From Rhodothermales bacterium (GTDB lineage: Bacteria; Bacteroidota; Rhodothermia; Rhodothermales; Bin80): a stretch of DNA of 64,000 nt. The stretch covers positions 18,676 through 82,675 of the forward strand of contig JAJECV010000070.1 of NCBI GenBank assembly GCA_022821875.1, given 5' to 3'. The stretch's first letter is position 1, and each line of letters opens with the position of its first letter. A program made the translations under genes and the position numbers. Below, piece after piece: positions 33,735-54,912 of this stretch. The notes below the pieces were generated by a model that saw nothing but the letters and a program-made list of their open reading frames with translations, was not told the origin of the DNA and ran no database searches.

Positions 33735-33750
33735 CATCATCCAGCCTATT

Positions 33751-36620: not shown

Positions 36621-38072
36621 CTAGTGCAATGCCCGGTCAAGTAGTTGTCGGTCAAGTTTATTGTCAATCTCGTAGGGAAAACGCTGAATAAATATATCAC
36701 GTGCAGTCCGCCATGGATCATTGTCAGAAGTTTGAAGATTAGCGGCCGTTCCCCACCAATTCTCCCCCTGGGTTGAGAGACAGAATGCAACGTAGTTGGC
36801 GAGAAATCCAGCATCTACTTGATTCTGGGCCGCAACTGTCTGAACGGCACGCTTCATTTTTCTAACTTCCCCCTTCGCCGTGCTGACACACTCTTGTAAT
36901 AGAATATCAGCTTTGCCATTGAGAACTACATCGGCAGCGAATTTGTTGGCGGCTAATTCTTCCGGAGAATCCCTGTACTCCGGCATTGTTTTATCCAACT
37001 TAATTACCTCAAGCGTATCGTCATCCGGCATTTGACCTGCGTGATATAACTCATGTAGCAGATCAAACTGCCATCTTGATTCATAGGCTGAATTCTGTTT
37101 CAATACAATGACATTACGATGTTCATATCTCCAGCACGCCCCATGAAATTTACCGGAGTCACACAGCGGTAAGATGGCTACACCAAAGTCCCAGGCGGTG
37201 TGCAAAAGATTTTGGAGACTAATACTGCCATATCTTTCAACTACGTATTCTCTAAAAACACCGGGGTTGGTAGGTACCGTATCTCTGGGGAGAGACTTTG
37301 ATCCATTCAGGACGAGTACGGCAAGATAATTGGCGTACGCTGCATACAGATCAATGGCATCCTGCCTGCGCCTGAGAGGCATTTTAAATCTCGCTTCGGC
37401 TGTAGCGAACTTTGGTGGTTCAAGTCTATCTGAACCGAATAAACCCTCACTGTTCCAACCGAAGATACGGTTCAGTACCACGGCAGTTCTGGCAGCAAGT
37501 GCAGTGTTTTCGTCCTGCGTCTCAATTTCACCCATAGCAAGGGATTTATCCCCCGAGGTCAGCAAACGATCTAATACAAATTTTTTCTCCAGACCGGCAT
37601 TGCGAAGCTTCTTGAGCAGAACCTGAAAATTCCCAGGCTGCACATGCAAAAAAATGTCATTCCTTATGTGCAATTCAAGGGCATCTGCTACTTCACGCAG
37701 GCGACTGTAACTAGCAGATGCATAACGCGTCGCTTCGTAACGCTGGATCTGCTGCTGTTTCAAACCCATTCGGAGAGCCAGATCCTGCTGGGTCAGACCA
37801 CTGGCAATTCGTGCTTTGATCAGCCCCTCGCCTAGTTCGTCAAACGAATTGACGCTGAATACTGAAGAACTTTGAGACTTTAGTCGATCATATTCATCCA
37901 GTTCGGCTGTAAGGTCTGCCAGCTGACTTTCCATCCCCTCACGCTCTGCTTGAATCAGGCGAGGTGATATATCCTTGCGATTCGCCTGATTGGATACAAG
38001 TTCCTCAATCGCCTCACGAAATTGATCCGCCTTCTTGCGGGTGATCCTGTACTGTCGCTCGTTGGTAATCAT
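36621..38072 (-). CDS. XRE-family HTH fused to ImmA/IrrE-type (DUF955) metallopeptidase
   Basis: HTH 'SGLTQQDLALRMGLKQQQIQRYE' and zinc motif 'LLHELYHAG' (HExxH). The ATG is embedded in an ATGA overlap with the upstream small ORF. Confidence 0.75.
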   Translation of the reverse strand: MITNERQYRITRKKADQFREAIEELVSNQANRKDISPRLIQAEREGMESQLADLTAELDEYDRLKSQSSSVFSVNSFDELGEGLIKARIASGLTQQDLALRMGLKQQQIQRYEATRYASASYSRLREVADALELHIRNDIFLHVQPGNFQVLLKKLRNAGLEKKFVLDRLLTSGDKSLAMGEIETQDENTALAARTAVVLNRIFGWNSEGLFGSDRLEPPKFATAEARFKMPLRRRQDAIDLYAAYANYLAVLVLNGSKSLPRDTVPTNPGVFREYVVERYGSISLQNLLHTAWDFGVAILPLCDSGKFHGACWRYEHRNVIVLKQNSAYESRWQFDLLHELYHAGQMPDDDTLEVIKLDKTMPEYRDSPEELAANKFAADVVLNGKADILLQECVSTAKGEVRKMKRAVQTVAAQNQVDAGFLANYVAFCLSTQGENWWGTAANLQTSDNDPWRTARDIFIQRFPYEIDNKLDRQLLDRALH

Positions 38073-38505
38073 GGGAGTGTGGCAAGGTCAATGTGAACGA
38101 TTCCTTTCGGGACATTGTTACGATCGGTTTTGAAAAAATTCTCATACGTAACTCCAAGGGCTGCCATGATTCCCGCCGGGAATAGTTCACCCTGGTATTT
38201 TGATTTCATGGCATACCGAGGGGACGAAAATCAAGCAATACCGGATCAAGGAGATCTTCATTGACACCCATCGTATACCAGACTCCGTCGTAGTCTTCCG
38301 GCAATTCTTTGTTGGACACAAAACTGCCATTGAGTAATACGGAACGACATCCCGCAGCAGCCAAGTTCTTCAAAGCAGCAAGTAATCCAAACAGTAAACG
38401 AGACCTATGCCCGTTAAAACCAAAATGGTCGGAGAAATTTGTCCAGTTCATCCGATGCGTTCCTGCTGGCAAATAGCCTGTCTCTGAATCAAAGTTTGGC
38501 AACAT
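38069..38505 (-). pseudogene. Minimal nucleotidyltransferase-like (DUF6932-like) gene, split into two overlapping ORFs (38505-38206 and 38209-38069)
   Basis: 'LPAGTHRMNWTNFSDHFGFNGHRSRLL...LLNGSFVSNKELPEDYD' (GS...DxD-like) is in ORF 1. A 46-aa ORF follows (MKSKYQGELFPAG...FFKTDRNNVPKGIVHIDL) that reads like the family C-terminus. The junction is ATGA and the second frame opens only 7 codons upstream. Confidence 0.45.
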
Positions 38506-38794
38506 TGTCAACAAGTACAACAATATCATTGTGTTACTGTTCCCAAGGAATGTCTTCCCACAATGAACTCTCACTGATAACGGTTTCCATTCAGCATTCC
38601 CCCTGCCTTGCACTTATATGGAAGGCTTAATAATTATTCACATCCCCCACTGATGGTCAGTATTTACCGCATCAGTCAATTTTCCCTGAATCTGAACCGC
38701 CCATCCAAACGAAAAACCGGACTGCAGCAATTCATTCAACGCCTTGAGACTCTGACGGGTGCAGCAACGAATTGCTGGAGGCCGATTACCAATA

Positions 38795-39451
38795 TTACAG
38801 TACGCTCGGATTAGTAAGCCCGGCGAAATAGTCTTTCAGATTATTCCACCTTAGCACAAGCGCTTCCTGCGACACTTCCTCACTTTTTTCTAGACGCACA
38901 AAGAATCTGCACTTCCCTTCTATGCGTCCGTCTCCTAGTCTATACATCTCTCTGGCAAAGTCAATCATTTCGGATTCACTGAGTTCTCTTTGATCATACG
39001 GGCGAACATACTGCTGTAACCCAGGCCACCCAGACTCTATGAGTTGTGTATTCAATCTAATTTGGTAGTCCGCTGGATTCACCCGGATCGTCATGGGGGA
39101 ATTGGGCTGCTTATCTTCGTCTCTTCCCAGACAACTGCGACTCCCGATTTTCCCCTCATCGTCCAGCAAATTCTCGATGGAGTCCTTAAGAACAATCACC
39201 AACTGAGCACTTGGATATTCATTTAGATACTCGTCAAATACATCCAGGAGGCTGTCTACCTGGGTTTGCAATTCGCTTATTGAGTCACGGAGTATCTCAT
39301 CGGTTTCTGGATTATCTAATCCATCATCGGCCGAATTATTATTGATGTAGGCCACCGTAACCGTACCCGAAAGAAATGCAATGACTAAAATTGCCGTCAT
39401 CAAATCGGTGATCGCGGGCCATACCGTAACCCTAGTCCGCTTCCGCCTCAT
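38795..39451 (-). CDS. MotB/TolR/ExbD-like single-pass membrane protein (stator plug/anchor candidate) with unrecognised periplasmic domain
   Basis: The N-terminus 'MRRKRTRVTVWPAITDLMTAILVIAFL' has basic residues followed by a TM helix carrying an Asp, in the W-x-x-x-(T/A)-D-L-M-T context typical of MotB/TolR. The start overlaps the upstream stop (TAATG). No OmpA-like peptidoglycan-binding motif was seen. Confidence 0.5.
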   Translation of the reverse strand: MRRKRTRVTVWPAITDLMTAILVIAFLSGTVTVAYINNNSADDGLDNPETDEILRDSISELQTQVDSLLDVFDEYLNEYPSAQLVIVLKDSIENLLDDEGKIGSRSCLGRDEDKQPNSPMTIRVNPADYQIRLNTQLIESGWPGLQQYVRPYDQRELSESEMIDFAREMYRLGDGRIEGKCRFFVRLEKSEEVSQEALVLRWNNLKDYFAGLTNPSVL

Positions 39452-41025
39452 TACTTTTCCCTTTCCATCTCCTTAACCATATCCGAAATAAGGTGAACAA
39501 GGCCCTGGATAATTTTTTCCAGGCTCTCGTGTGTATGCTGAACAGTTTCAATGTACATGTTCATCTTATCAGAGAGTGGGGCTAACGCTTCCGCGGTAGT
39601 GGAACCTACCACCTCGTTGATATTCGTCCCCACTTCCTCTAATTCCTTTGGAATTCCCGATAGAACTTGCGCGGCCTCTCGCAATTTATCTCCAAACTGC
39701 TGCGCAGCCTCAGGCATAGTCGCCGCCGTCTCCTCCAATCGTACAGCTATTCCTCCTAGAGGATTAACAATATGCTCCTCCATTTTATCGCGAAGTTCGC
39801 CGAAAGAATCAACGATTTTCTGGTTCTCGCTGATGAGCTTATTGATCTGGATAGCCTGACTATTTTCAAGTGAATCTGTGAATTCGGATAAGGAATCAAT
39901 GATTCTCTGATTCTCGCTGACGAGACTCCCAAACCGACGATCCTGACTACTTTCAAGCGATCTGATGAATTCGGATAAGGACTTGATTACCGTCTGATTC
40001 TCGGTGACAATCTTGTTGATCAGGTGCTCTTGCTTACTTTCAAGCGACTTCCCGAACTGGGATATTGCTTCCTGAAAAGCCCTGTCCAGTCCACTCACAT
40101 AGTTTCTTACCTCCCTTCCAAAAATCTCGTCTATCTTCTCCGCGTTAATTGATTTTTGGATTTTACCGGGTAGCCGCTCAATTTCTGTTGTTAGGGATTT
40201 TCTTTCATTAATCAGTCTTCTTAGAGAATCATCAACTCTCTCCAGCAAGTTTTGCTGATCTGTCTGGATTTTTGCGACGGATCCTTGCTGCTCCTTTGAA
40301 TAATTCTTTAATTCTATAAGCACTTCGTCGATTTTTTGGGTAACATCTTTCTGATTTTCCAATGCATCCCAAACAATAGCCTGTTGTTCTCCAAAACGCC
40401 TCTGCATATCATTCATCACGGCGGTCTGCCCTTGAAGAAACTCTGGAATCATCTCAAAAAGATCCAAAGCATCCGCCTCATTCCATGCCTCTGTCAACTC
40501 TTCTAGTTGTTTACTTAATTCGGATTCTGGGACTTTCTCTTGTGCCTGCGCATCCAGTAGTTCGGCTTCCTTCTTGCTTATCTGGTCATGTGCAGTGGAC
40601 AATATGCTAGATGTAATGTAGAGATGATTCAAGACACCAATTAAACTGGAAAGCAAGGCAAGGAGGAGGCCCAAAATAATCGCCCCAAACCACACGGAAC
40701 TTATATCTCTTGAATAACCTACCCATAGCCCTGTGGAAATTGCCTCCAGAAGAAAAATACCCATTGTCCCCCCAATACCGGCTACAAGGGCAGCATTTGA
40801 AAATGATCGGACTTTCTCCAGGGGAAGTTCCACCATCCGGTCAAACTGATCAATGACCACATCCGATGCGGTGACATCCTTGATGTCAAACTTTCTCAGA
40901 CTCAGGATATGGTCAATTTCTCTTAAAGCACGGTCGGAATCTCCAAAAATCTTTTTCTGCCACCATATCAGAAAAACGAACGCCCCAATTTCTATGACAA
41001 GAATCAGTGCAGCGATAAATCCCAT
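39451..41025 (-). CDS. MotA/ExbB/TolQ-like membrane protein with ~380-aa cytoplasmic coiled-coil tail (ZorA-like architecture)
   Basis: Three TM helices (aa 1-24, 76-100, 110-137), with 'AGIGGTMGIF' where MotA/ExbB has its G-rich TM2 motif. A long heptad-rich tail follows, containing three 29-aa repeats. Confidence 0.45.
   Translation of the reverse strand: MGFIAALILVIEIGAFVFLIWWQKKIFGDSDRALREIDHILSLRKFDIKDVTASDVVIDQFDRMVELPLEKVRSFSNAALVAGIGGTMGIFLLEAISTGLWVGYSRDISSVWFGAIILGLLLALLSSLIGVLNHLYITSSILSTAHDQISKKEAELLDAQAQEKVPESELSKQLEELTEAWNEADALDLFEMIPEFLQGQTAVMNDMQRRFGEQQAIVWDALENQKDVTQKIDEVLIELKNYSKEQQGSVAKIQTDQQNLLERVDDSLRRLINERKSLTTEIERLPGKIQKSINAEKIDEIFGREVRNYVSGLDRAFQEAISQFGKSLESKQEHLINKIVTENQTVIKSLSEFIRSLESSQDRRFGSLVSENQRIIDSLSEFTDSLENSQAIQINKLISENQKIVDSFGELRDKMEEHIVNPLGGIAVRLEETAATMPEAAQQFGDKLREAAQVLSGIPKELEEVGTNINEVVGSTTAEALAPLSDKMNMYIETVQHTHESLEKIIQGLVHLISDMVKEMEREK
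39781..40023 (-). repeat. Three tandem ~87-bp (29-aa) repeats inside the coiled-coil tail
   Basis: The units are IVTENQTVIKSLSEFIRSLESSQ.. / VSENQRIIDSLSEFTDSLENSQ.. / ISENQKIVDSFGELRDKM. DNA-level recurrence of TGAATTCGGATAAGGA...CTGATTCTCG is visible. Confidence 0.8.
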
Positions 41026-41027
41026 AT

Positions 41028-42395
41028 TTATTTACTCTCGCACTCCCGGATTTTCGGAGAAGGTATCTTTGAGTGATAGTAACTGGGCTGTATGCCTTCC
41101 ATGAATTGCTCAAGCCCAAGGGTTAGATCGCTACGATGCTCAACTGATGACCAGTCGGCCCAGTCCGCGGACTCTCCATATTCTACTCCCACATCAATAG
41201 ATGTATCACTGCACACTCCGGTACGATCCCCACGGATCGTTTCTCGAAGTGCCTTACAGTTGAGGTCCATATTAATCTGTGCGGCCTCATTATCGTCCTT
41301 ACTCACGCGAATGATCCCCTTCACATCATCCGTTTCCACTGATGTAATCGTCACCAGACTGTCTGCAAATCTGCCGGCCAAACTATGTGTTCCACTGTCT
41401 TTGCAATAGTAACCGTGCTCCTTATCAAGCCCAACAGGCTGAAAACCTGTTCCTTCATAAGCCAGCCAGTCGAAATTGGCCTGCCCGGTTAAGGAGCCTA
41501 GAGTTATGGTCGTATGCTTCACCCCCAATCCAATATCCTCAATAGACTCCGTAAACTCTGTTGCCAGATTGTGTACAGGGTTGTTTTCACGGCTATCCCC
41601 CCCTGGCCTCCGTCCCATAATGAGAACATAGATTGGCCTCTTCGCAACTGCTTCCATGGACTGATAGCGCTGCTGGCCTTCATGAAACCAGCAGCCTAAA
41701 GGTCCGGGTACCGAACGACATGTTCCACTGTGTACCCCCCAGTAATCAATGCGAATGCCTACGATGGCAACATCAATTTCACCTGCATTGTAGTATGCCC
41801 TTATTGCTGGATCTTTGAAGTACGGCAGCAGGGCTGTAGCCCCGATTCCATAGTTGGTAGTCGTAATCAAATCAGTAACCAGTGCTGCCCCTTTGAGCGT
41901 GCCGCTCTTGAGTCCTTCAATCACATCTCGAATGCCCTGATCCAGACGGGATTCTCCACCGGTAAAAAATCCTCTGTTCAAAGTGCTTTCACAATCTACC
42001 GTTGTAATGGAATCCGTGATTCCAAGGCACTTGAGCGAAGACTCCCCGCCCCCGTAATCTGTGGTCAATCGCGCACTCTTCAATAAATTGTGGATCCTCT
42101 GAAGCGCGTCCTGACTGTCTGGATTCGTCCGATGAACATATCCTCCCATCGGAATAGACTGATCCCAAAGAAGTTGAAAAACATGCCTGACCGAGTCACG
42201 GTCTACCGATTCCCATAATGCCTCCGAATCCTCCCATACCGGTTCAACTTCCGCAGTGACGCTGAGAAACTCACCTTCTTCTCCATCCGAAGATGAGGCG
42301 CAGCCAATTTGCAAAAACATCCCGGTCACCAGAAATCCTGCACCCACGATTGTCATCCACCACTGCGTGTCGCTATTGGAGCCTTTCCGTATCAT
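41028..42395 (-). CDS. Lipoprotein of unknown function (455 aa)
   Basis: TM/signal 'WWMTIVGAGFLVTGMFLQIGCASSS' with a lipobox-like Cys, and several further Cys residues. It has an ATGA overlap with the upstream gene and a 2-nt gap to the downstream gene. Confidence 0.6.
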   Translation of the reverse strand: MIRKGSNSDTQWWMTIVGAGFLVTGMFLQIGCASSSDGEEGEFLSVTAEVEPVWEDSEALWESVDRDSVRHVFQLLWDQSIPMGGYVHRTNPDSQDALQRIHNLLKSARLTTDYGGGESSLKCLGITDSITTVDCESTLNRGFFTGGESRLDQGIRDVIEGLKSGTLKGAALVTDLITTTNYGIGATALLPYFKDPAIRAYYNAGEIDVAIVGIRIDYWGVHSGTCRSVPGPLGCWFHEGQQRYQSMEAVAKRPIYVLIMGRRPGGDSRENNPVHNLATEFTESIEDIGLGVKHTTITLGSLTGQANFDWLAYEGTGFQPVGLDKEHGYYCKDSGTHSLAGRFADSLVTITSVETDDVKGIIRVSKDDNEAAQINMDLNCKALRETIRGDRTGVCSDTSIDVGVEYGESADWADWSSVEHRSDLTLGLEQFMEGIQPSYYHSKIPSPKIRECESK

Positions 42396-42946
42396 ATTTG
42401 CGTCTGTGTTCGTGGTTTACCGGTGGATTTCAAATCCGCAACGAATTCCTGAATGTTTTCCAGGCGATTTAATGCATCCCTGAGGATTGAGGCTTGATGA
42501 TTCCGGCGGCGGTCAAGTTGCCGCAGTACTCCATTCGCCAATTTCATCGCCCCTTTGACCGGTAGAGAAAGTAACCTAGAAGAAATCTGAGTACCCCGCC
42601 CGGATGTTTTTTGTGACCGAGAATAAACTGCTCTGGAATCCCCCTGCACTTCTGCCGGAAGTTCTCTCATTGTCTGAAATCGGGGCAAATTCTCTGCAAC
42701 ATCCAGCATATTTTGAAGGACACGTTGATCCAGCGAAGCGGGACGGCGATGTATTTTTGCATCAAGGCGACCCAGTTTTTCAATCACTGACTGGATAACT
42801 GGAATCGCCCCCCATTTGACCAGGAGAGAAGAAATCCGCAGCAGGACTGCTTCGTATAGAGAAATGCTGATCAGCGACAGATGGGACACAAGAAGCATGA
42901 AGCCTTCAAAATTTAGACTTGGCTCATTCATTGTAATCACAAACAT
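42392..42946 (-). CDS. Small helical protein with hydrophobic N-terminus (184 aa), unknown function
   Basis: ORF in an operon context. 'FMLLVSHLSLISISLYEAVLLRISSLLV' could be a TM or amphipathic anchor. No motif was recognised. Confidence 0.5.
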   Translation of the reverse strand: MFVITMNEPSLNFEGFMLLVSHLSLISISLYEAVLLRISSLLVKWGAIPVIQSVIEKLGRLDAKIHRRPASLDQRVLQNMLDVAENLPRFQTMRELPAEVQGDSRAVYSRSQKTSGRGTQISSRLLSLPVKGAMKLANGVLRQLDRRRNHQASILRDALNRLENIQEFVADLKSTGKPRTQTQI

Positions 42947-42992
42947 GTACGACTCCCATCTTTCACTTCAGCAGGCAATAGTCCTCTGGAAT

Positions 42993-45900
42993 CTATCCTT
43001 CCTGGAATTCCCTTGACTTGAGCACATTCTCCCAGATAAGGGCTGCAATCGGTGCATCTACCGTATCATCACTCCGCGTTGCCTCGTCACCCGAAATGCT
43101 GTCATTGATTTCTTTCATGAAGATATCTTCAATCCTTTTTACGCCTTCGCCACTATTTGGAGAATGTATAATGAGCGGTGGATTGAATTCACCAATACAC
43201 AAACTAACCGACCTGCTGACTCCCTCAAATGGAAGTTTCTCATACCAATTTCTCCGTTCATCTTCGGTCCCTCTACTAAGGAGCAGCACATCCGACAAAG
43301 GAAAGCGATGGCTTCCCGCAACCGCTTTCTCCGGGCTCATACTCTTGCCGACCGCATGCTTAATTGGTCCGAGTTTCGGCGGCGAATCGTCCTTGTAATC
43401 AGCCGGGTACCACACCTTTTCTAGTGAAATACCCTCAAAGCCTACTTCTTTCCAAAGTTTGATGGCACGCTGCTTCACCCACTCTTCCATATCTTCCTGA
43501 ATCTCCTTATAACTCGTTCTACGGTACCAAAGACGCCACCCATTCCCCTTGAGATGGACGATGAGTTTTAACTTCTGAAGATCGCTCTCCGATTCCAGTA
43601 ACGGTAAGACATTTTTCGCAACATAGGCGACGAGGTTGCGAGCCAGAAAATCATTAATGACCCGGAAGTATCGATTGATTAATTCCCTTGCATCATTAGC
43701 ATCCTGAGGCTTTTCAAACCCCTTAAGTTTTAAAGCATCAGCACTCCAGTTCCTGCTCTGAGTTCCGAACAATTTCTCTGATCCAACCGAGCGCATCCAC
43801 GCACGTAGTTGTTCAAATGCCTTATCCGGCTTCCAGCCTCTATTCCTTGGCAAGTATTTTTCTGAGTGCCTTGCTAAAACTTGAAGAAGAAGATCACTCC
43901 CCATCTTTACACTTTCCGCCACCTCGCCAAATCCCCTGTCCTCAGACCCATAACTGTCTATATCCTTCGTCGCCATGAATATATCCAATGTTCCACCACC
44001 TAAATCAGCCACAAGTTTCACCGCAATCGGAATTCCTGGCCCTATTGAATCGAATGCGGCACTTGACTCGCTGTATAGCCCATTACCTTTGGCCCCTTCA
44101 CGGCCTTCCGTGAGCATGAACTTCGATCCAAGATCATCTTCACAGACATCCAATACCTTAACGACTACTTCCCCATAACGACTTGTAGCCTGCGTGGTGG
44201 TTCCACGCAAAGGGTACGTGAAAGTGACCTCAACTGTCCCAGGCAAACTCTCTTCACGCTTAGCGATATCTGCCAGGAAAATTTCGATTGCCATCCTGAG
44301 ATACCTCTCCCGAAGCCATTCTTCCTTCTGCGTAAATCGACCTCTATCCATCTCCCATTTGAACCCGGATATAATATGATTCTGGAGATCTGAGCGCTGC
44401 AGTTGCATAACGGGGATTGCATAATGCGTCATCGGAGCCCATTCATCCTTGAATCTCTCGGTCTCTACAGAATCAAGCTCTCCGAAAGACCAGAGATCTG
44501 ACGGCAGTAGCGCCTTTGATATTTTGTCCTCTTCCCCCTTTTTATAGGTTGGTCGCCATGTATCCAGTCCCATCTCTGCAAGGTGACCATCATAGTTTTG
44601 ACTGATATGCAACGATAAGCCATCCTCACCTGACAGTTCATTGTTAAGATTGACCAAATGTTTCTCATTAATCTGGTATGCGGCAACGGTATGGGAAGTC
44701 CCAAAATCTATGGCGAGTTTCCAGGTATTCTCGTCTCTGGAATATTCCTTCAGGCAAATTACATAGATCCCCGCATCACGATCTGTTTTGTGATCGTAGG
44801 CAGATAAAGCTACAGGCGGCCCTCCCACGTGTCGGCCATCCTTGAAATCCACGGCCTGACTGTATCCAGGGCGACTCAGTGGTCGCTTCTTCAACTCGGA
44901 CAGACTGCCTTCCTTGTCCAGATAAATGGTTTGAGCCTCCAGTCTTGGAGAATTCTCATACAGATAATAAGCACGCCACTGCTCCTTCCCGTTCGGCGCT
45001 TTAATGTTGGGCCAGATCATCCAGTGAGCATTTGAAGATTCGATACCATCCACAGAAATCGTGACCGGAACTGGTTCAGATCGCCCCAGAAGATCCAAGT
45101 TCCAATGAACGACTTTACGCCCTCTATCTACATTACCGGATTGTTTGAGCCGTCTCCAGGCATGGTCGTGATCTATGCATTTTTCTCCCTCATTTTTCTC
45201 GCCTTTCGGGATCTTCAAGAGATCAATGTAATCCGGGCGAAGCGGAATATCTGGATATAGCGTTTTATTTTCTCCGGTTCCATTCACCGATTTTTGGGTC
45301 AAAGGGACACAAGTATCAATCTGAATCGTTTCCCTGTCAATGACCTGCAGGTTCCGGATGTAGATTGGCTCTTCGCCTAACGTTTCCCTGATCCAGATGC
45401 CTCTATTCTCTTGGTCCCTCCTCCACGCAAAAATTTTACGCGTTTCCTGAAGTTGATCCAAATGCTCCCTCCATATTGCTCCAATCGTATAGTCAATATT
45501 TCTGGGCAATCGAAAGTTCTTGATGATCTCGAATGTTTCAGATTTGCGAGATTTCTCAACGGTACACTTTTCAAACTCGGGGACTCCGCTGATCAATTCA
45601 TCAATGCTTTTCTCCGCACCCTTTCTGCCGGGATCAAGATCTTCAAACAGATACAGAGAATCCCCCATAACGGGCATGGGGATTTTTACGTCGCCGCCCG
45701 GTAAAGGCAGCCATTCTGCAACCCCGAACGGACCGGCTTCCGCGTCCAAATGCGTGTCTAAGACATCAACCCAGATCCGGGAAGTCTCTTTGGCAACTTT
45801 GTCCTTAACATGGCTTTCCACGCAGTTCAGCCAACCTCTGACACACTTTCTGGCTTTTTCCCCCTCGAATCCCCAATCCGTAGAATCCCTCCAGGCGGAT

Positions 45901-48059
45901 TTGTCCTGATTATCAGAGCCAACTTTGTCTTTCACGCGGTCTGCTGCACGCTTGAGAGTGCCGCCGAGATATTTCCCGACTTTTCCGACTTCGTCTCTCC
46001 AATTCTTTGATCTCCAGTCAACATCCCAATGAATCCCCGTCAGGTCTTTCCAGAGACTTTCCCAATCTTCATTACTTACGTCTGGCGCGGGGCAGAGAAA
46101 TGTCTCCGGTGAATTGAACCCGTACACCTTACCGCTCTTCTGATGAATCAGACGGTACTCCGCTATATCTGTATCTGTATCCTTGATCAGACGCTCAAGA
46201 GACAGAAAACTCCGCCCATTTCTGGTTTCAACCTTCTGCAGTTCCAGTACGCCAATCGCTCGTCCCACCAAGAGCATTTCAAGTTTGCGCAGAGCAACAG
46301 GACTCTGATATACAATCTGGAACTTGTACTCTTCTACCACCGCAATATGATGTGGCCAGCTATTGGGGGACACATGGTCACGGTCAAAGTAATATTCAAC
46401 CGTACTACTGATCTTATCATCCGACACCTTTCCCAGTTCACCGGGTGCCCCCCATGTCGGTAAGAGCCCCGTATCGTTTTTGGAATCAATATCAGGCCAA
46501 TAGCCCTGCCCTTCGCGTGCCTTCCCTGACTTTTTGGCCAATTGCAGATTCTCCCATTCATCTTTAATCCAATGTGCAAGCCAATGAAAAAGACCCAATG
46601 CCATACACTCAACCTTGTCCAAATCGGACAGGCGTGTATTCTGTAACTCGGAAACACTGGGCAGTGACTTCTTTTTCAGTCGTTTAATGCATTCTTTCTC
46701 CGAAAGAAAGAATTTCCCTCCCTTCTCCTCCACACTGCGGCCCTCATATTGAATATCTCCCCGGCTTTCCTTTCCCAGCGACGATATCCATGCCAGAAGT
46801 TCCCGATAGGTATGCCGGATGGAATCCAGTTCATCTGCGACTTCTTTCAGGCTTGAACGATCATTCCGCAACTCTGAATTTGCCCAGTCAACAATGGCAG
46901 GGACAGGAGTCTGACCTGCAAAAATGAAGAAATTAGAAAACGATGCGTACCCTCCGTCTTTCGCGTTCTCTCCCGTTTTTCTTAACACATCGGAAAACTC
47001 TCCGAGTAGATATGTGAGGATCTGTGCATGACCGATCATCTCACGCAAGGTAGCGCCACTATCCTCCTTAATGATCATATCACCGGTCAGATAATCAGCA
47101 TCCGATGCCGATACACCATACAATCCTTCTTTGATTTCACGATCCTTTGTCGTCAGAAAGTATTTTATTCCTGCCAGTGCCCCGACCGCATGGGCATAGG
47201 AGTCCAAGGAGGGCTGTTGATTGTCGGATGTGTATTGGCGCAAGATTCTTCTATGATCCGGCACGCCTACCAGAACGGTAGGTACTTTTCTGGCCAAATC
47301 TTCCCCGTAGGATGCAAGTCCACCAGCTGCGTTCTCCTTCATCACCTTATTGCGTTCAACGGACTTGTCAAACTTCTCCCTTGATTCATCAGGCCTGCTG
47401 AACTGGAACCATCTATGCACCATGATCGCCATCACCTCAGCTTTCTTTTCCTTACACAGACGGGCAAGAGTTGGAGTGACAGATGAACCCGTTCCGCCGA
47501 CACTTGAACCGCAAACCACCATCCGCCGATCTCCACAATCGTTCAGCATATCGTTATAAGCCTCATCGTAATTCGGCTTACCCTTCCCCTCAATATCTAA
47601 CTCTTTGAGTGCAAACAGAAGCGACCCCACCGCAGGGGAGGCCATCATCCCCAGGGAATAGGTGATCTCCCGCTGTGCTTCGGATGTGATTAACGGGAGT
47701 CTGGGCGATCCCTTGAACTTGTACTTCAGGCGATGATTCGGGGGCTTATACCAATCTTTGCCTTCCCCGACAGGTAATGGACTGACATCCCGGCAGATTG
47801 GTTGATCCGGGCGACCGAAGAATTCCGCAAGATCATATTTGCCTGGGTGATTCTTGATTAAATTTTTGACTTCCTGCCAGGGAGTACTCTCCTCTTGCTC
47901 TTTCCCATCACCGGAATCCTGATCAACCAGAAACAGGTCTGGGAAATTTTTGCCTGCTTTGACAAAGAAGCCAAATGGGTATCCCAACATATGGAGACGC
48001 ACCATTGCCAGCATTACATGGGCACCAGTGCCCCCACACGCGATGAAACGATTATTCAT
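42993..48059 (-). CDS. Giant (1688 aa) protein: N-terminal FtsZ/tubulin-like GTPase motifs plus C-terminal actin/Hsp70-like (ASKHA) ATPase motifs
   Basis: At aa 5-20, 'FIACGGTGAHVMLAMV' is T1-loop-like. At aa 181-220, 'VVCGSSVGGTGSSVTPTLARLCKEKKAEVMAIMVHRWFQF' parallels FtsZ 'GGGTGTGAAPVIA..AKE.G.LTV.VVT.PF.FEG'. At aa 1114-1127, 'KLAIDFGTSHTVAA' is phosphate-1-like. At aa 1346-1363, 'AVKLVADLGGGTLDIFMA' is phosphate-2-like. No TM helix is present. Confidence 0.6.
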   Translation of the reverse strand: MNNRFIACGGTGAHVMLAMVRLHMLGYPFGFFVKAGKNFPDLFLVDQDSGDGKEQEESTPWQEVKNLIKNHPGKYDLAEFFGRPDQPICRDVSPLPVGEGKDWYKPPNHRLKYKFKGSPRLPLITSEAQREITYSLGMMASPAVGSLLFALKELDIEGKGKPNYDEAYNDMLNDCGDRRMVVCGSSVGGTGSSVTPTLARLCKEKKAEVMAIMVHRWFQFSRPDESREKFDKSVERNKVMKENAAGGLASYGEDLARKVPTVLVGVPDHRRILRQYTSDNQQPSLDSYAHAVGALAGIKYFLTTKDREIKEGLYGVSASDADYLTGDMIIKEDSGATLREMIGHAQILTYLLGEFSDVLRKTGENAKDGGYASFSNFFIFAGQTPVPAIVDWANSELRNDRSSLKEVADELDSIRHTYRELLAWISSLGKESRGDIQYEGRSVEEKGGKFFLSEKECIKRLKKKSLPSVSELQNTRLSDLDKVECMALGLFHWLAHWIKDEWENLQLAKKSGKAREGQGYWPDIDSKNDTGLLPTWGAPGELGKVSDDKISSTVEYYFDRDHVSPNSWPHHIAVVEEYKFQIVYQSPVALRKLEMLLVGRAIGVLELQKVETRNGRSFLSLERLIKDTDTDIAEYRLIHQKSGKVYGFNSPETFLCPAPDVSNEDWESLWKDLTGIHWDVDWRSKNWRDEVGKVGKYLGGTLKRAADRVKDKVGSDNQDKSAWRDSTDWGFEGEKARKCVRGWLNCVESHVKDKVAKETSRIWVDVLDTHLDAEAGPFGVAEWLPLPGGDVKIPMPVMGDSLYLFEDLDPGRKGAEKSIDELISGVPEFEKCTVEKSRKSETFEIIKNFRLPRNIDYTIGAIWREHLDQLQETRKIFAWRRDQENRGIWIRETLGEEPIYIRNLQVIDRETIQIDTCVPLTQKSVNGTGENKTLYPDIPLRPDYIDLLKIPKGEKNEGEKCIDHDHAWRRLKQSGNVDRGRKVVHWNLDLLGRSEPVPVTISVDGIESSNAHWMIWPNIKAPNGKEQWRAYYLYENSPRLEAQTIYLDKEGSLSELKKRPLSRPGYSQAVDFKDGRHVGGPPVALSAYDHKTDRDAGIYVICLKEYSRDENTWKLAIDFGTSHTVAAYQINEKHLVNLNNELSGEDGLSLHISQNYDGHLAEMGLDTWRPTYKKGEEDKISKALLPSDLWSFGELDSVETERFKDEWAPMTHYAIPVMQLQRSDLQNHIISGFKWEMDRGRFTQKEEWLRERYLRMAIEIFLADIAKREESLPGTVEVTFTYPLRGTTTQATSRYGEVVVKVLDVCEDDLGSKFMLTEGREGAKGNGLYSESSAAFDSIGPGIPIAVKLVADLGGGTLDIFMATKDIDSYGSEDRGFGEVAESVKMGSDLLLQVLARHSEKYLPRNRGWKPDKAFEQLRAWMRSVGSEKLFGTQSRNWSADALKLKGFEKPQDANDARELINRYFRVINDFLARNLVAYVAKNVLPLLESESDLQKLKLIVHLKGNGWRLWYRRTSYKEIQEDMEEWVKQRAIKLWKEVGFEGISLEKVWYPADYKDDSPPKLGPIKHAVGKSMSPEKAVAGSHRFPLSDVLLLSRGTEDERRNWYEKLPFEGVSRSVSLCIGEFNPPLIIHSPNSGEGVKRIEDIFMKEINDSISGDEATRSDDTVDAPIAALIWENVLKSREFQEG

Positions 48060-48075
48060 GTCTTCTCAGATTATT

Positions 48076-48384
48076 TTATTTCGCTTTGTTGGATTTCTTC
48101 TTTTTATAGGATGAAGTTCTTGCATGGAAAATCCCAAATCCCATTGCACAACTGGCAACGCATCCCAGGAACGCTCCTAGAACATGAGTCCACTTTTGCG
48201 CATCAGAGCAATCAGCACCGAAGAAAAGCCCGGCAAGAAAAAACGGGAGCAGTATTACGATAAACGGAAATAACTGAGCAGCAGAAAGCTTCGGTGCCGA
48301 CTCAGTTCTCCGGAGATTCCATTTACGTACAGCCCGACTTTGTAGAAAATAAAAGGCACCGTAGATAACAAGACTGACCAACAC
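48076..48384 (-). CDS. Multi-pass membrane protein; the reading frame continues upstream to a lipoprotein-type signal peptide and a C14 tract
   Basis: The ORF-track start is GTG 48384. The same frame is open up to 48540 and encodes 'HFLSKTSVLVLLFTVTGCSRLD' (signal plus lipobox VTGC). The two upstream ATGs (48551, 48544) are out of frame at the present tract length. Confidence 0.6.
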   Translation of the reverse strand: MLVSLVIYGAFYFLQSRAVRKWNLRRTESAPKLSAAQLFPFIVILLPFFLAGLFFGADCSDAQKWTHVLGAFLGCVASCAMGFGIFHARTSSYKKKKSNKAK

Positions 48385-48518
48385 CGCGACAAAGAATGTC
48401 TCTATAAACCCAAGGGTATAGTTGGTACCTGAGAACCCGCTCTGGCAGACCGTATCAAGTCGGGAACAGCCTGTAACTGTAAATAAGAGTACTAAAACCG
48501 AGGTTTTAGATAAAAAAT

Positions 48519-48532
48519 GGGGGGGGGGGGGG
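48519..48532 (-). repeat. Homopolymer G14 (C14 on the coding strand) in the 5' end of the first operon gene
   Basis: Direct count gives gg + gggggggggg + gg at 48519-48532. Confidence 0.95.
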
Positions 48533-49244
48533 TATTTTGTTCATGTGTCATTTTAGACTTTGAATTTGGGCGGATGACACTATCCCCCGTCACGGACATG
48601 CACCCCTGATGTATGGCACCGGAGGAACTCGCCGAATGTCTATGTCCTGCAAATCGTGAAGTGCTCATGGGATCTGACAATGTTGAAACGCCAAATATAA
48701 TGCATGGAGATGTTTTCACCAAACCGGCGGCATAATTGGGGACTTGCTGTTCCCCCCATGGGGATTTGGTTGCGGCCAGTCCGATTCGCAGTTCGCGGTA
48801 AACAGGGTCAGGACAGATCCGTAATTCGCGGCCGCAAAGAATCCGTTTAGGCTACCAGAGAATACAATTCAGAGCATTGTCACATCATGCTGCGGGGCTG
48901 CAGTGAACATGCAAGACACGTTGGATGTAGGAAAATGTACCCGTTTGAAATCCTTGAGATCCTGCAAAAATCTGAATAGTAGCCAGAGGATAGATACTCC
49001 ACACTCAAAGAGACAAGCCATCGTACTCCAAAAGTTCAAATGTGAAACCACATAATTGTGGGACTCTGTCGGCAATCACCAAAGTTGCCGACTGTCTAAT
49101 CCTGATGTGAGAATTTTTTGACCCCGGTATCGGGCGGACATATCCCTCCAGAGAATTTACTCTCGGAGCGAACAGAGAAACCCTCAATAATTGATTGAGA
49201 TTTGAAATCCTGCACAACCAACAAACCTCCAATCCCCCGCATCA

Positions 49245-50171
49245 ATGAAAGCCATTCCGCTCATTGCACTCCAACATCTACCCGGAATTGGAGCAAAGAC
49301 AGTGCTCAAAATGGCCGGCGATCTGCCAAGTGGCCCTGTGGAGTTTGCCGACTTTATTAACTCCAGGTTTGGACATCCATTACAGGAAACCGTACATGCG
49401 TGGGATCAAGCCCTACAAATCATGGATAAATGCCTCCAGTCAAACATAAATGTGGTTACAGTAATAGACGAGAACTATCCAGAGAGACTTCACGGAATAC
49501 GGGAAGACAGGCCGCCCGTGATGTACATCAAGGGTTCCCACGAGGCGCTTCAAAGCAATTCTGCGGTTGTCGCAATCATTGGAACACGTGAACCTACGGA
49601 CAGGGGGAGCAAAGCAGCATATGATCTGGGTTGTATCGCGGCTCAGAACAACCTACCTGTCGTAAGTGGTCTCGCCTATGGGTGTGACTATCATGGTCAT
49701 GCCGGTTGCTTGGATCAAGGCGGTATCGCTGTAGCCATACTTGCTCATGGACTGGACATGGTGTATCCGCGGAAGCATGAAAATCTGGCAAATCAAATCA
49801 TTGAAAAAGGGGGCTGCCTCTTGAGCGAATATCCCCCAGGCGTTCAAGCCAGAAAATGGACATTCATTGCCCGTGACCGACTGCAAAGCGCACTCTCAGA
49901 TATTTTAGTTGTCATCCAGACGGGGATCCACGGCGGCACACACCATACCGCTGCATTTGCCCAAACCCAGCAAAAAACGATCTTGTGCCTGCGACCTCAT
50001 GAACATGAATTACACCATCCCAGTGTACAGGGAAATGCTGACATTGTCCAGACGCGAAATGCAATCTGGATTGATGGCCCCGATGATTTAATCCCGCTCA
50101 TTCATAACCGGAATGGGAACCGGCCTGAACAGCACTGCACAAGTGGGCAACTTGAACTGTTTCCTGATTGA
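49245..50171 (+). CDS. dprA: DprA/Smf-family (SLOG-fold) DNA-processing protein
   Basis: 'LQHLPGIGAKTVLKM', 'VAIIGTREPTDRG', 'VVSGLAYGCDYHGH', 'AILAHGLDMVYPRKH' and 'TFIARDRLQSALSD' are present. At 308 aa it lacks the usual C-terminal extension. Confidence 0.65.
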   Translation: MKAIPLIALQHLPGIGAKTVLKMAGDLPSGPVEFADFINSRFGHPLQETVHAWDQALQIMDKCLQSNINVVTVIDENYPERLHGIREDRPPVMYIKGSHEALQSNSAVVAIIGTREPTDRGSKAAYDLGCIAAQNNLPVVSGLAYGCDYHGHAGCLDQGGIAVAILAHGLDMVYPRKHENLANQIIEKGGCLLSEYPPGVQARKWTFIARDRLQSALSDILVVIQTGIHGGTHHTAAFAQTQQKTILCLRPHEHELHHPSVQGNADIVQTRNAIWIDGPDDLIPLIHNRNGNRPEQHCTSGQLELFPD

Positions 50172-50322
50172 GAGTCGGACTTTGGGCCCGGCACCAGTTA
50201 ATCAGTTTCCCTTCACGCATCTGCGCAGATCCTGTACACGAAAAAACACAACCTGTTGCGGAATCTGCAAAACCGCAACCCGTTGATACGGGCATGAACG
50301 CTCCCTCACGCCTCATACGAAA

Positions 50323-51711
50323 TCAAAACTTACTGGAGATTTTCAGGGCAACCTTTGTCAAATCGTAGGATATTGTCATGCCTGCCGGATGGCGCTTGCT
50401 CTTGGCGTAGTTTGTCCGCTCTTCCCAAATTGATTTGCCTCTTGAGATGTTGGCATCCACTTCTTGCACAAGAAGTGGATGCAGGGGGAAATTCTCAAGA
50501 TTGGTACGCGTTAAATGGAACCCATCGCCAACTGTACGCCAGTAATCCAAGAATAGATCTGATGACATGATGAGGACGGCTTTGTACAAGTCGACCTCTG
50601 TTTTGAAGCGCAGCCGAAGAACCCCAGATGAATGATGCTCACGAAAGCCCATAAAATTTCTCGCAACACCCGATATGTACAGCGAATGTATACCATCTGC
50701 CGCCAGAATGGTTTTCAGTGGAGGATACAAATGAGCATCCTTGAGTAAGTTCAGGATGGCGGCATTTTCCGGCCGTAGAAATTGCCCGCCAAAATTGTAT
50801 CCGGTTATATCATGATAGCAAGGGGTAGAATTCAGCAGTCTGCTGCGATCCTTTTTCCTCCACCGATGCATTCGTGTGGACAGTGTTCTGGGATTGTCTT
50901 CAGGAAATACGGTGACGATTGAGCACCGCTGGCTATTGGCCTTGTTTGTGTTTTTATGTTTAGGCTTCCCACTCGAAAAGAGGCAGTCAGGGATATTATC
51001 AAAACTGGAAATCGCAACACTCTTCCCGGAATTTCTCATCATGGATCGCAATTCCACATAGTCGCGACTAAAGGCGACTGACAAAGGCAGAATGAAATGA
51101 ACCGAACCATGTTCTCCACTCTCTGTCAGCGCACGCTCCAGGAAATCTGCGAAGCTATTTTTCCATCGGCTCCCCTTGGGATTCGCTACATATGGAGGGT
51201 TTCCAAAGAATAATGGCTTCTTGGATGATCCAGAGGGTGCGTAGTGAAGAAAATCGGTACACACATACCTAATGTCTGAGAAAGAGAGACCCCATTTTTT
51301 TGAAATTTTCTGAATTTCGTCACGGGCAAAGTCTAGTGCTTTGGGGTTGATGTCAATTAATGTGATTTCAGCAGATGAAAGGCAGTCCAATGGTAAGCCA
51401 AGTTCGACAACCTTTTTGAGTAACGCATACACAAGGATTCCTGCACCAGATGCAGGCTCTATGAAGTGGTGTTCCTGCCAGAAAGCCTTGATGTCCTGCT
51501 CTTCAGAAATACCATTGAGCACCATGAATTCGTTCCAGAAGAACGCGGCGGCATCTACGGGTGTATAATACGCACCTACCTTCTTGCGGGCATCTTCGGA
51601 CTGACAGGGCGACGAGTAGGATAGCGTCAACTCCGCCTTTTCGGAATGCCTTAATACCTCTTCAAGACCCGCTACCCATTCTGATCTCCAGTCCCCGTTG
51701 CAGATTTTCAT
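50323..51711 (-). CDS. N6-adenine DNA methyltransferase (gamma-class, Eco57I-like)
   Basis: Motif X 'GAYYTP', I 'IEPASGAGIL', IV 'FFGNPPYV'. The start is uncertain (ATG 51711 or 51777), and both overlap the HNH gene's 3' end. Confidence 0.8.
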   Translation of the reverse strand: MKICNGDWRSEWVAGLEEVLRHSEKAELTLSYSSPCQSEDARKKVGAYYTPVDAAAFFWNEFMVLNGISEEQDIKAFWQEHHFIEPASGAGILVYALLKKVVELGLPLDCLSSAEITLIDINPKALDFARDEIQKISKKWGLSFSDIRYVCTDFLHYAPSGSSKKPLFFGNPPYVANPKGSRWKNSFADFLERALTESGEHGSVHFILPLSVAFSRDYVELRSMMRNSGKSVAISSFDNIPDCLFSSGKPKHKNTNKANSQRCSIVTVFPEDNPRTLSTRMHRWRKKDRSRLLNSTPCYHDITGYNFGGQFLRPENAAILNLLKDAHLYPPLKTILAADGIHSLYISGVARNFMGFREHHSSGVLRLRFKTEVDLYKAVLIMSSDLFLDYWRTVGDGFHLTRTNLENFPLHPLLVQEVDANISRGKSIWEERTNYAKSKRHPAGMTISYDLTKVALKISSKF

Positions 51712-52669
51712 TGGATGGTTCGTATTCCTGGGAAACGGGTTTGGCGAATCTTGTATGGTGCAACGATTCAATCGCATCTAGCCCCTTTGCTTGTTTTTCT
51801 TGTCTGAGATACTCCGCTCGGTCCTGATTGAAGATCAGGAGATTATCTGGTCCTGGTAGCAGCAAAGCAGTATCGTAGAGAGCATGATGCTCAATACACA
51901 ATGCTAGGCCATTGTCTACTGTATTGGGAGAATTATGGACAGAATGGGGGATGATGTGTGCTGCTTCCACAATTCCCAGTTGCCGCTTACAGACACAACA
52001 TGCGTGCCCATAGGCCGCCAATACTTTTTTCTTGAATTGTGGATCACGAGGAAACGCTTTTCGTGTGTAAGAGAAGCGCATCCGTTTCTCACTTGTGGAA
52101 GTGGTCTCTCCCTCAATTGAAAGGAAATTCGCAGAATAAGAGTCACGAACAATTCTTTGAATGTCTTCGTCAGACCGCAGACGATGAAAGTGCTGTATGT
52201 TTTGCAGATAGAAGCCCAGCGAATCTGAAGTCAGGGCGATTTCGGATGTATTCTCTTCCATGTATTTTGCAGAAAATGTGCGGACAGCGGCAGAACACTC
52301 TTCAACACGTTCCTTCTGCGTTTGCCTTGCATATACCGACACCATTCTTCTGGCTTGAAGTGTGAAAATATACATCGGATCCCAAGCCGTAAATACCCTG
52401 CCGCCTTCAAAGAAGCCAATAAACGCAACATTCATTCTTCCCTCCCGGCGACTGCGTTGCTTATCAATATACTTTCTAGGAATTTGAATCCGCACCTCGT
52501 CGTCATTGGATCGCCGGTTCCCCGAATCATGCACCTGTGAGATATGCAACGAATGTAGTATTCCATTAAACTGGACAATCACGGGATTTGACCTGTCTTT
52601 GATCACAAAGTCCTCAAAGTATGGCCTCAATGAATCCTGAACGAAATGATACAATAGATCCCGCTTCAT
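51662..52669 (-). CDS. HNH endonuclease (putative restriction enzyme)
   Basis: 'CCVCKRQLGIVEAAHIIPHSVHNSPNTVDNGLALCIEHHALYD'. ATG 52669 forms an ATGA overlap with the C5-MTase stop. Confidence 0.8.
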   Translation of the reverse strand: MKRDLLYHFVQDSLRPYFEDFVIKDRSNPVIVQFNGILHSLHISQVHDSGNRRSNDDEVRIQIPRKYIDKQRSRREGRMNVAFIGFFEGGRVFTAWDPMYIFTLQARRMVSVYARQTQKERVEECSAAVRTFSAKYMEENTSEIALTSDSLGFYLQNIQHFHRLRSDEDIQRIVRDSYSANFLSIEGETTSTSEKRMRFSYTRKAFPRDPQFKKKVLAAYGHACCVCKRQLGIVEAAHIIPHSVHNSPNTVDNGLALCIEHHALYDTALLLPGPDNLLIFNQDRAEYLRQEKQAKGLDAIESLHHTRFAKPVSQEYEPSNENLQRGLEIRMGSGS

Positions 52670-54874: not shown

Positions 54875-54912
54875 CCTTCAAATCGTCGGATTGATTTTCT
54901 ATATTCTGATCT

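Follow-up and report, generated by a model that had tools for sequence, protein, structure and literature searches.

A six-gene operon combining a ZorA/ZorB-like stator with a predicted tubulin-like and Hsp70-like giant protein: a candidate Zorya-type variant

In a stretch of 64,000 nucleotides (nt) from a Rhodothermales bacterium (contig JAJECV010000070.1), which as a whole is called the window here, six minus-strand genes at 38795–48551 (named A to F) form a locus that we regard, with somewhat more confidence than doubt, as an undescribed Zorya-type variant acting as an anti-phage or anti-mobile-element system. Few immune systems rely on a rotary motor driven by ions, and Zorya, which is one of them, has reportedly been studied by Doron 2018, Payne 2021, Hu 2024 and Mariano 2025. 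To our knowledge, nuclease partners are the only ones for which it is known how the signal of the Zorya motor is converted into defence. The genes described here appear to encode a Zorya-type motor together with an unprecedented partner, a non-nuclease protein with two predicted nucleoside triphosphatase (NTPase) domains, and the system would in this sense not be categorically new. As relatives of F are recognised by ZorB1 models, we propose a new Zorya-type variant rather than a wholly separate system. An earlier note on this DNA had described the same genes as a coupled operon pairing a MotA/MotB-like stator with a giant protein carrying tubulin-type and actin-type motifs, and its single claims are taken up below where our results bear on them.

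The relationship to Zorya is seen in the two proteins at the end of the operon. F is a predicted ZorB homologue with a swapped periplasmic domain. Its motif WPAxxDLMT, including Asp16, is invariant in 13 family members, and the family splits into two classes by the periplasmic part, one with a two-Cys domain and one with an OmpA-like domain. F of the window belongs to the two-Cys class and has the invariant C107 and C181 in place of the OmpA-like domain, whereas five of the 13 relatives, found in loci L003, L010, L015, L020 and L021 (loci are numbered as retrieved, see below), possess the OmpA-like domain with an EGHTD motif. These five are matched by Pfam OmpA (best E 6.7e-6), and against the ZorB1 models of PADLOC members of the OmpA-like class reached E values of 3.3e-48, 1.1e-40 and 3.7e-39. 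The best match of the F profile in the PDB was ZorB 8vvn_B (E 0.0098), which is the type I ZorB from Shewanella (PMC11890865).

E is probably a divergent ZorA homologue. It shows hydrophobic segments at residues 1–24, 75–97 and 106–138 followed by a tail of about 380 amino acids (aa), and the family alignment revealed two invariant motifs, GGTM (T87) on the second transmembrane helix (TM2) and ALxxSxxG (S127) on the third (TM3). Pfam MotA_ExbB is the family most often matched by the N-termini of E proteins (3 of 12 members, best E 5.2e-5). As apolipoprotein and designed helical bundles crowded out other PDB matches of a full-length E profile, the comparison was taken from a profile of the transmembrane core. 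This profile found the type II ZorA 8vvi_F from S. kujiense (PMC11890865) with an E value of 0.012, covering TM2–TM3 with the conserved Thr and Ser aligned; it is the top match of a stator family and ranks second, with the MacB ABC-transporter chain 5nik_J (E 0.0091) above it. The PADLOC model ZorA1 matched E of the window in the tail (E 2.7e-9), and ZorA models dominate the PADLOC matches of all ten E relatives tested, with E values of 1e-5 to 1e-11 and mostly in the tail as well. A homologue search with the N-terminal 170 aa of E returned two proteins only.

For the Zorya system of E. coli it has been described that Asp26 of ZorB together with Thr147 and Ser184 of ZorA form the proton path and functional triad, and that the tail of ZorA is needed for signalling (PMC11946911). 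E and F seem to keep the proton-carrying residues of such 5:2 rotary stators, namely Asp16 of F and Thr87 and Ser127 of E. The E tail contains 87-nt (29-aa) repeats, which were located by a repeat search, while Tandem Repeats Finder at its own threshold reported nothing in the E gene of the window. In L002, a locus 97% identical in B, the E tail carries two extra repeat units (L002 18124–18425) and the protein has 582 instead of 524 aa, and therefore the length of the E tail varies between near-identical strains. The earlier note had read these two genes as a MotA/ExbB-like protein with three transmembrane helices and a tail of about 380 aa and a MotB/TolR-like single-pass protein with a transmembrane Asp, and had seen in them a likeness to ZorA/ZorB. 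The topology is borne out by the three hydrophobic segments and the tail of E and by the single transmembrane segment of F with its invariant Asp16, and the likeness by the matches of the family to 8vvi_F, MotA_ExbB and the ZorB1 and ZorA models.

The central partner of this putative motor would be the giant protein B, which is predicted to be a cytoplasmic protein in which a tubulin/FtsZ-like GTP-binding domain is fused to an Hsp70-like ATPase domain. B has no hydrophobic or transmembrane segment, and a sequence search of the PDB with B gave no match. We modelled it with AlphaFold2 in two parts (residues 1–970 and 975–1688, alignments of 46 rows). The N-terminal model reached a predicted local distance difference test score (pLDDT) of 83.3 and a predicted template modelling score (pTM) of 0.81, and in a Foldseek search against the PDB its best 50 matches were all FtsZ, tubulin, TubZ or BtubA structures (probability about 1.0, E from 4.8e-3, template modelling score (TM-score) on the target 0.40–0.46); in a viral structure library phage tubulins were the top matches. 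In direct sequence comparisons the similarity was lower, as Pfam Tubulin matched B of the window with E 0.0015 and 19.2 bits, which is below the gathering cutoff of 33, and hhalign against FtsZ aligned GSxVGGTGSS with the T4 loop only weakly (E 0.019). In 39 homologues CGGTGAH (8–14), D46, D48 and GSxVGGTG (184–191) are invariant in this part of the protein.

The C-terminal model was obtained with a pLDDT of 88.9 and a pTM of 0.90, and its best 50 Foldseek matches in the PDB were all Hsp70 proteins (DnaK, BiP, Hsc70) with E values from 4.6e-11 to 8e-9 and a TM-score on the target of up to 0.59. The profile of B also aligned with E. coli DnaK in hhalign (E 4.3e-5, DnaK residues 146–230), where E1331 is paired with Glu171 of DnaK and the DLGGGT motif is aligned. 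DFGTSH (1118–1123), E1331, DLGGGTLD (1352–1359) and GNGW (1505–1508) are invariant in the 39 sequences, and with them the phosphate-1 motif DxGT, the catalytic Glu, the phosphate-2 motif DLGGGTxD and the adenosine motif (GG-type) are all present. Judged from these residues both nucleotide sites of B look intact. Since Pfam HSP70 did not match B of the window at E up to 1 and no Hsp70 substrate-binding domain was recognised, this part is to be seen as an Hsp70-like ATPase domain and not as a chaperone orthologue. The FtsZ/tubulin-type and the Hsp70/actin-type motifs that the earlier note had pointed out in the 1688-aa protein thus come with the corresponding folds in the models, which predict the 'actin-like' part to be specifically Hsp70-like, and the two motifs spelled out there, GGTGSS (188) and DLGGGT (1352), are present and, like GGTG (residue 9) and DFGTSH (1118), invariant across the 39 homologues.

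No sign of a nuclease was found in the locus. Scans of the six window proteins with Pfam, NCBIfam and PADLOC yielded sub-threshold matches only, and neither these scans nor the inspection of invariant residues and motifs revealed a nuclease signature. A motif scan for the Walker A motif (P-loop) found none in A, B, C, D and F, and the sole match among the six proteins is a chance match within the coiled coil of E. In B the invariant residues of the middle region are mostly Trp, Pro, Gly and His, and none of the acidic residues between positions 156 and 1117 is invariant, which speaks against a metal-dependent nuclease. For A, B, C and D there was no match to any PADLOC model at E up to 1. The statements that no nuclease motif is visible and that the locus holds no likeness of ZorC–G, both made before from the letters, are in line with these scans, in which neither a nuclease nor a P-loop was detected.

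The remaining three genes are C, D and A. C is the least conserved member of the set, ranges from 149 to 453 aa in the relatives and has no match in Pfam, NCBIfam or PADLOC; the 184-aa helical protein announced for this position was recovered as an open reading frame (ORF) whose part behind a hydrophobic hairpin is helical. D is probably a lipoprotein, judged from a signal sequence ending with …FLQIGC, and its 455-aa ORF agrees with the lipoprotein described before. Its family is closed, with 122 representatives among 1.84 billion proteins, which is about the size of the B family; beyond these we found no relatives, no PDB or Pfam match and no Pfam annotation of the homologues. D is present at the syntenic position in 19 loci. 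It carries the motifs DQSIPM and LVTD, and a secreted D-like protein from a distant clade of giants (see below) carries DDSVSM and LVTD; hhalign aligned the two with a probability of 63% (E 6.8e-5). An assignment of D as a vWA domain, which the resemblance of DQSIPM/LVTD and DDSVSM to a metal ion-dependent adhesion site (MIDAS) had brought up, is unsupported, since there is no PDB match and no Pfam annotation and the family is closed, and hhalign against two BatA/B-type VWA proteins aligned 13 columns only.

In the assembly, the length of a poly-C tract puts gene A out of frame. The tract is C14 on the coding strand and the only homopolymer of at least 9 nt in the window. From the ATG at 48551 a stop is reached 20 codons on, just past the tract. 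With C12 or C15 the same frame is open and results in a 157-aa product, which starts with MTHEQNTPPPHFLSKTSVLVLLFTVTGC and shows a lipoprotein-type signal (…VLVLLFTVTGC) and three hydrophobic helices; from this signal peptide and the helices A is predicted to be a small envelope protein. Of the earlier description as a membrane protein or lipoprotein with a C14 tract, the tract stands, as do the signal and the helices in the C12 or C15 frame, but the gene is not in frame as assembled. Homologues of A lie upstream of the giant gene in 17 loci. The poly-C tract is found at the same position of gene A, with conserved flanks, as C10 in L001 (position 9534) and L002 (9537), as C12 in L003 (9502) and as C14 in L010 (9549), and it is kept at a B identity of 43% (L003) and 38% (L010). 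Read from the shared ATG, gene A is in frame in L002 and out of frame in the window and in L001. Conservation of the tract with variable length across such divergence suggests a candidate slipped-strand on/off switch for phase variation (contingency) on the first gene of the operon.

In order to follow the gene set through other genomes, neighbourhoods of B homologues (31–43% identity) were retrieved and their ORFs were searched with the six window proteins. The full-length homologues of B number at least 129; all of them are unnamed, none has a Pfam annotation, and they originate from metagenome-assembled genomes (MAGs) of Rhodothermales/Bacteroidota, from Thermoanaerobaculia and from other metagenomes. 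A contig search with B alone returned only 97%-identical relatives, on two Rhodothermales MAG contigs. More than 15 independent loci, with giants 31–43% identical to B of the window, share the gene order, and therefore the arrangement is not due to chance. Order A-B-(C)-D-E-F was seen in L002, L003, L005, L006, L008–L012, L015–L017, L020, L021, L031 and L032, with A, B, D, E and F syntenic and C found where it is still recognisable. The earlier note had made its proposal depend on the co-conservation of the six genes, and this is what the more than 15 loci display.

Whole systems occur in tandem in two genomes. On one contig of 3.83 Mb (L032/L031) the P0033 system is directly followed by the P0016 system, with a third paralogue, P0013, elsewhere on the contig, and in L010 a second A and a second giant gene lie downstream. 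Some loci carry extra genes. A PpkA-like Ser/Thr kinase (L015 11842–14538; PDB 5hnv, E 6.6e-37) and a 1078-aa TPR protein (L020 19931–23167) have been added after F, and a 1114-aa protein of no recognised kind is inserted between B and C in L031 (15133–18477). The genes after F in L015 and L020 had been considered as ZorC/ZorD, and are a PpkA-like kinase and a TPR protein instead. In L007, L018 and L019 the stretch behind D holds an unannotated gap and, in opposite orientation, a glyoxalase gene.

More distant giants of the same size and domain order, with 21–24% identity, are encoded in L023 (4697–9538), L024 (7307–12175) and L026 (6808–11709). They match Pfam Tubulin_2 (PF13809), which in our view corresponds to FtsZl1 as described by Makarova and Koonin 2010, with E values of 4e-5 to 2e-6. 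In L027 (giant at 2826–6188) the tubulin-like part is a separate 442-aa gene (Tubulin_2 E 2e-8), and two of the four loci L023, L024, L026 and L027 exceed the Tubulin_2 gathering score; for B of the window and its close relatives there is no Pfam Tubulin_2 match. The partners in this clade are bitopic proteins with signal peptide, transmembrane helix and coiled coil and the secreted D-like protein with DDSVSM mentioned above, and L026 additionally has a trypsin-TPR protein. The giants of L023 and L024 show weak Pfam SrfB matches (E 0.09–0.26) at about residues 1280–1336, over the Hsp70-like phosphate-2 region, and SrfB proteins (virulence factor) may contain a related ATPase domain.

Coordinates of all features are given in Table 1. 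The genes are separated by 16 nt (A-B) and 46 nt (B-C), C and D overlap by 4 nt (ATGA), D and E are 2 nt apart and E and F overlap by 1 nt (TAATG), and in our ORF check the tight packing of six minus-strand genes came out exactly as described before in all coordinates, gaps and overlaps. A scan for sigma-70 promoters and terminators was uninformative, with promoter-like sites rarer than in shuffled sequence. The GC content of the operon region is 0.46–0.49 compared to 0.56–0.65 at 6–24 kb of the window, in agreement with the lower-GC island noticed earlier.

Table 1. Features of the operon and its surroundings in the window (positions count from the first letter of the window; TM, transmembrane; HTH, helix-turn-helix).
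Feature	Position	Strand	Description
Dcm-Vsr-HATPase-Z1-DUF4420-AIPR	27631–36593	+	six-gene module beside the operon
HTH protein with M78 (IrrE-like) peptidase	36621–38072	-	immediate neighbour
DUF6932 protein	38206–38613	-	immediate neighbour
Gene F	38795–39451	-	218-aa ORF; ZorB/MotB-like single-pass subunit, N-terminus MRRKRTRVTVWPAITDLMT, one TM segment, Asp16
Gene E	39451–41025	-	524-aa ORF; ZorA/MotA-like subunit, three TM helices, helical tail of ~380 aa
Repeats of 87 nt (29 aa) in E tail	39768–40064	-	found by repeat search
Gene D	41028–42395	-	455-aa ORF; exported, signal peptide ends …FLQIGC, 9 Cys
Gene C	42392–42946	-	184-aa ORF; N-terminal hydrophobic hairpin ~16–51, helical remainder
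Gene B	42993–48059	-	1688-aa ORF
Hsp70-type (ASKHA) ATPase domain, B ~1105–1688	42996–44747	-	large inserts; motifs as in the text
Middle region, B ~336–1104	44748–47054	-	helical part, then beta-rich parts; no family match
FtsZ/tubulin-like GTPase domain, B ~1–335	47055–48059	-	T1-like CGGTGAH 8–14, T4-like GSxVGGTGSS 184–193
Gene A	48076–48551	-	out of frame as assembled; open ORF 48076–48384, GTG start, 102 aa
Poly-C tract (C14 on coding strand)	48519–48532	-	19 nt downstream of gene A start codon
DprA/SLOG-family protein	49245–50171		immediate neighbour on the other side
MTaX1-HNH endonuclease with Dcm methylase	51662–53700
SWIM zinc-finger protein with SNF2/DUF3670 helicase	54014–58011
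Third Dcm methylase with 992-aa HATPase/HEF_HK protein	59127–63206

The operon lies in a dense defence island between recognisable defence modules. The module preceding it encodes a Dcm methylase, Vsr, a GHKL-type HATPase, a Z1/ResIII helicase, a DUF4420 protein (PD-(D/E)xK-like) and AIPR, and is by its predicted gene content a complete restriction/abortive-infection-type cassette. A location between restriction-modification and abortive-infection-type genes had been noted before, and defence modules were identified on both sides. A 484-aa protein without Pfam match also neighbours the operon (within 49245–51777), and the window has three C5-methylases within a span of 36 kb. Neighbours of the relatives include an MmeI-like methylase, AbiEii, GmrSD with integrase and relaxase, PIN, NACHT/AAA_16 and insertion sequence (IS) elements.

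From these data we would suggest the following model. E and F would form an inner-membrane, proton-driven E5F2 complex, which in the window would be anchored in the envelope by the Cys-pair periplasmic domain of F, the exported D and the lipoprotein or membrane protein A, and in some relatives by the OmpA-like domain of F. A phage disturbing the envelope would release the motor, and the E tail would then signal to B, perhaps via a membrane-tethered C. B would act at the membrane through nucleotide-dependent self-assembly of its tubulin-like part and ATP-driven clamping or remodelling by its Hsp70-like part, and infection would be blocked without a nuclease. Slippage in the poly-C tract might switch the first gene, perhaps the whole operon, on and off. 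The locus could then be a fourth kind of Zorya, in which a rotary sensor recruits a fusion of tubulin-like GTPase and Hsp70-like ATPase, and infection would be stopped physically by the assembly of this protein at the membrane, a proposal that we put forward tentatively and hold to be possible rather than probable. If it is true, phase variation would control a system in which an ion-powered motor drives a cytoskeletal-type polymer or clamp as its immune effector, and the motor would be a general-purpose envelope sensor able to drive quite different outputs. It would also give a first function to the obscure and divergent tubulin-like (Tubulin_2-type) bacterial proteins and extend bacterial immunity by an effector that is not a nuclease and possibly forms polymers. 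As the family is small and well delimited, with about 120–130 clusters, six genes and clear mutational targets, the model is directly testable.

Besides the stator relationship, the strict linkage of the four other genes to E and F in these loci and the defence genes around them, the tandem copies of whole systems, the poly-C tract and the polymorphism of the tail repeats may be counted in favour of a Zorya-type immune system by analogy, as the last three are traits common in immune loci. Several results weigh against it. The window F itself matched the PADLOC ZorB1 models with E 0.013 only and has no OmpA-like domain or Pfam OmpA match. The similarity of E to ZorA is mostly found in the tail, which is also matched by the JetC, LmuB and DndD models, and the tail scores are inflated because of coiled-coil composition; NCBIfam ZorA_3 gave 18.7 bits for E of the window at a cutoff of 250, and no significant alignment was obtained when the E core was compared by hhalign with TolQ, ExbB and MotA of E. 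coli. One lineage, from Thermoanaerobaculia (L007, L018 and L019), keeps A–D without E and F, and the distant clade of giants has other partners and no ZorAB-like genes, and therefore B does not strictly need the motor. Systems with Tubulin_2/FtsZl1 proteins have been predicted to remodel membranes and not to defend (PMC2875224). The differences in poly-C length could partly be homopolymer or assembly errors in metagenomes, and no effector activity can be named for B.

Some of these points would fit a housekeeping or conditional envelope or cytoskeletal machine, in which the stator is coupled to B for membrane remodelling, vesicle formation or surface maintenance. We consider this unlikely, though it deserves to be taken seriously, as distant B relatives match Tubulin_2 and FtsZl1 operons contain OmpA-family proteins, kinases and vWA proteins (PMC2875224), to which the OmpA-like domains of F relatives, the PpkA-like kinase in L015 and the DxSxS-like motif in D and its distant counterparts would correspond; the lack of a detectable nuclease and the persistence of A–D without E and F in L007 point in the same direction. 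However, the vWA link is unsupported, and B has an Hsp70-like part where FtsZl1 has a coiled coil and a helical domain. The distribution is patchy and rare (about 120–130 clusters in billions of proteins), the loci are situated in defence islands and mobile elements, paralogous copies stand in tandem, a poly-C phase-variation tract would be unusual for a housekeeping function, and the nearest relatives of the stator are Zorya proteins and not those of Tol, Ton or Mot.

If the locus is defensive, the channel formed by E and F might itself be the effector, with A–D sensing and gating it and a proton leak collapsing the membrane potential and killing the cell. Such abortive infection was the original proposal for ZorAB, as far as it is quoted in PMC8565338, and it would agree with the lack of a nuclease or any other enzymatic effector among the matches of A–D and with phase-variable expression, which fits a costly or toxic system. 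Yet type I Zorya acts directly via its nucleases and not by depolarisation (PMC11946911), and B, with its 1688 aa and two NTPase sites that are both conserved, seems to be more than a gate, so we regard a depolarising channel as rather improbable, even if the present evidence is equally compatible with it and with the nuclease-free Zorya-type system favoured here. A service for mobile elements, such as entry exclusion, partition or transfer, with B as a TubZ-like NTPase would explain why L008 adjoins relaxase, MobC, integrase and ArdC, why IS elements flank several loci and why phage tubulins were on top in the viral fold search. Tubulin-like TubZ and PhuZ indeed serve plasmids and phages. Against this, neither the 72,556 plasmids nor the 50,697 phage genomes searched by tblastn contained a match to B, an OmpA-type F relative had none in the plasmids at E up to 1e-5, a centromere-binding partner is absent, most loci are chromosomal and without transfer genes, and periplasmic and stator parts have no place in partition, which leaves this explanation with a very small chance. 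That the locus is an ordinary member of Zorya type I, II or III missed by the profiles can practically be dismissed. OmpA-class F relatives do score very strongly against the ZorB1 models, but PADLOC is blank for A, B, C and D, the genes downstream of F in the relatives are a kinase, a TPR protein or NACHT-like genes and not ZorC/ZorD, and none of the three subtypes in the literature has a tubulin or Hsp70 partner.

Compared with known systems, E and F share with MotAB, ExbBD and TolQR the predicted topology, the transmembrane Asp, the Thr/Ser filter and the Pfam MotA_ExbB matches of some E members. They differ in the long tail of E and in the hhalign comparison with the E. coli proteins mentioned above, and a flagellar, TonB or TolA partner is missing from this locus. 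Tubulin- and HSP70-family NTPases as assembling or regulatory modules are also a theme of predicted, often membrane-proximal, conflict systems, of which the DO-GTPase/GAP1-N2 systems have tubulin or HSP70 components (Kaur, Burroughs, Iyer and Aravind 2020, PMC7159879). There, tubulin and HSP70 are encoded by separate genes as alternative themes, tied to DO-GTPases/GAP1 and found in Firmicutes and Actinobacteria, whereas B fuses tubulin-like and Hsp70-like parts and is accompanied by a ZorAB-like stator. We rejected an assignment as a DO-GTPase system, since no P-loop (Walker A) GTPase and no match to a GAP1 family were found.

The FtsZl1 operons have the divergent tubulin-like domain in common with B. 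They encode vWA, P-loop GTPase, OmpA-family and kinase partners and have been predicted to function in membrane remodelling (Makarova and Koonin 2010, PMC2875224). In both, a very large protein carries at its N-terminus a highly divergent GTP-binding domain of the FtsZ/tubulin kind, in which inserts separate T1 from T4, both sit in operons rich in membrane and exported proteins with OmpA-family partners and, in some loci (here L015), Ser/Thr kinases, and distant B relatives reach the Tubulin_2 gathering score. In contrast, FtsZl1 continues with a coiled coil and a helical C-terminal domain and B with the Hsp70-like ATPase, B of the window has no Tubulin_2 match, the hallmark vWA protein and P-loop GTPase were not found in this locus, and no MotA-like partner has been described for FtsZl1.

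Zorya itself comprises three subtypes, which are defined by ZorC/D, ZorE or ZorF/G (PMC8565338, PMC11946911, PMC11890865), and our literature search yielded no paper linking Zorya to tubulin-like or Hsp70-like partners. The partners in this locus are unrelated to ZorC–G and lack domains for nuclease or helicase activity and for DNA binding. The stator genes stand at the 3' end of the operon, E has a short loop of about 50 aa between TM1 and TM2 and a tail of about 380 aa that is shorter than that of E. coli ZorA, a two-Cys domain replaces the OmpA-like domain in F of the window, the set includes the two extra envelope proteins A and D, and E remains below the curated ZorA cutoff. In common with Zorya are the MotB-like single-pass subunit with its essential transmembrane Asp, the MotA-like subunit, in which TM2 and TM3 carry the Thr/Ser pair and a long helical tail lies in the cytoplasm, the translational coupling of the stator genes, an OmpA-like domain for peptidoglycan binding, with Cys pairs, in some members of the F family, the location in defence islands and, as read from the genes alone for this locus, additional proteins with a cytoplasmic one at the centre.

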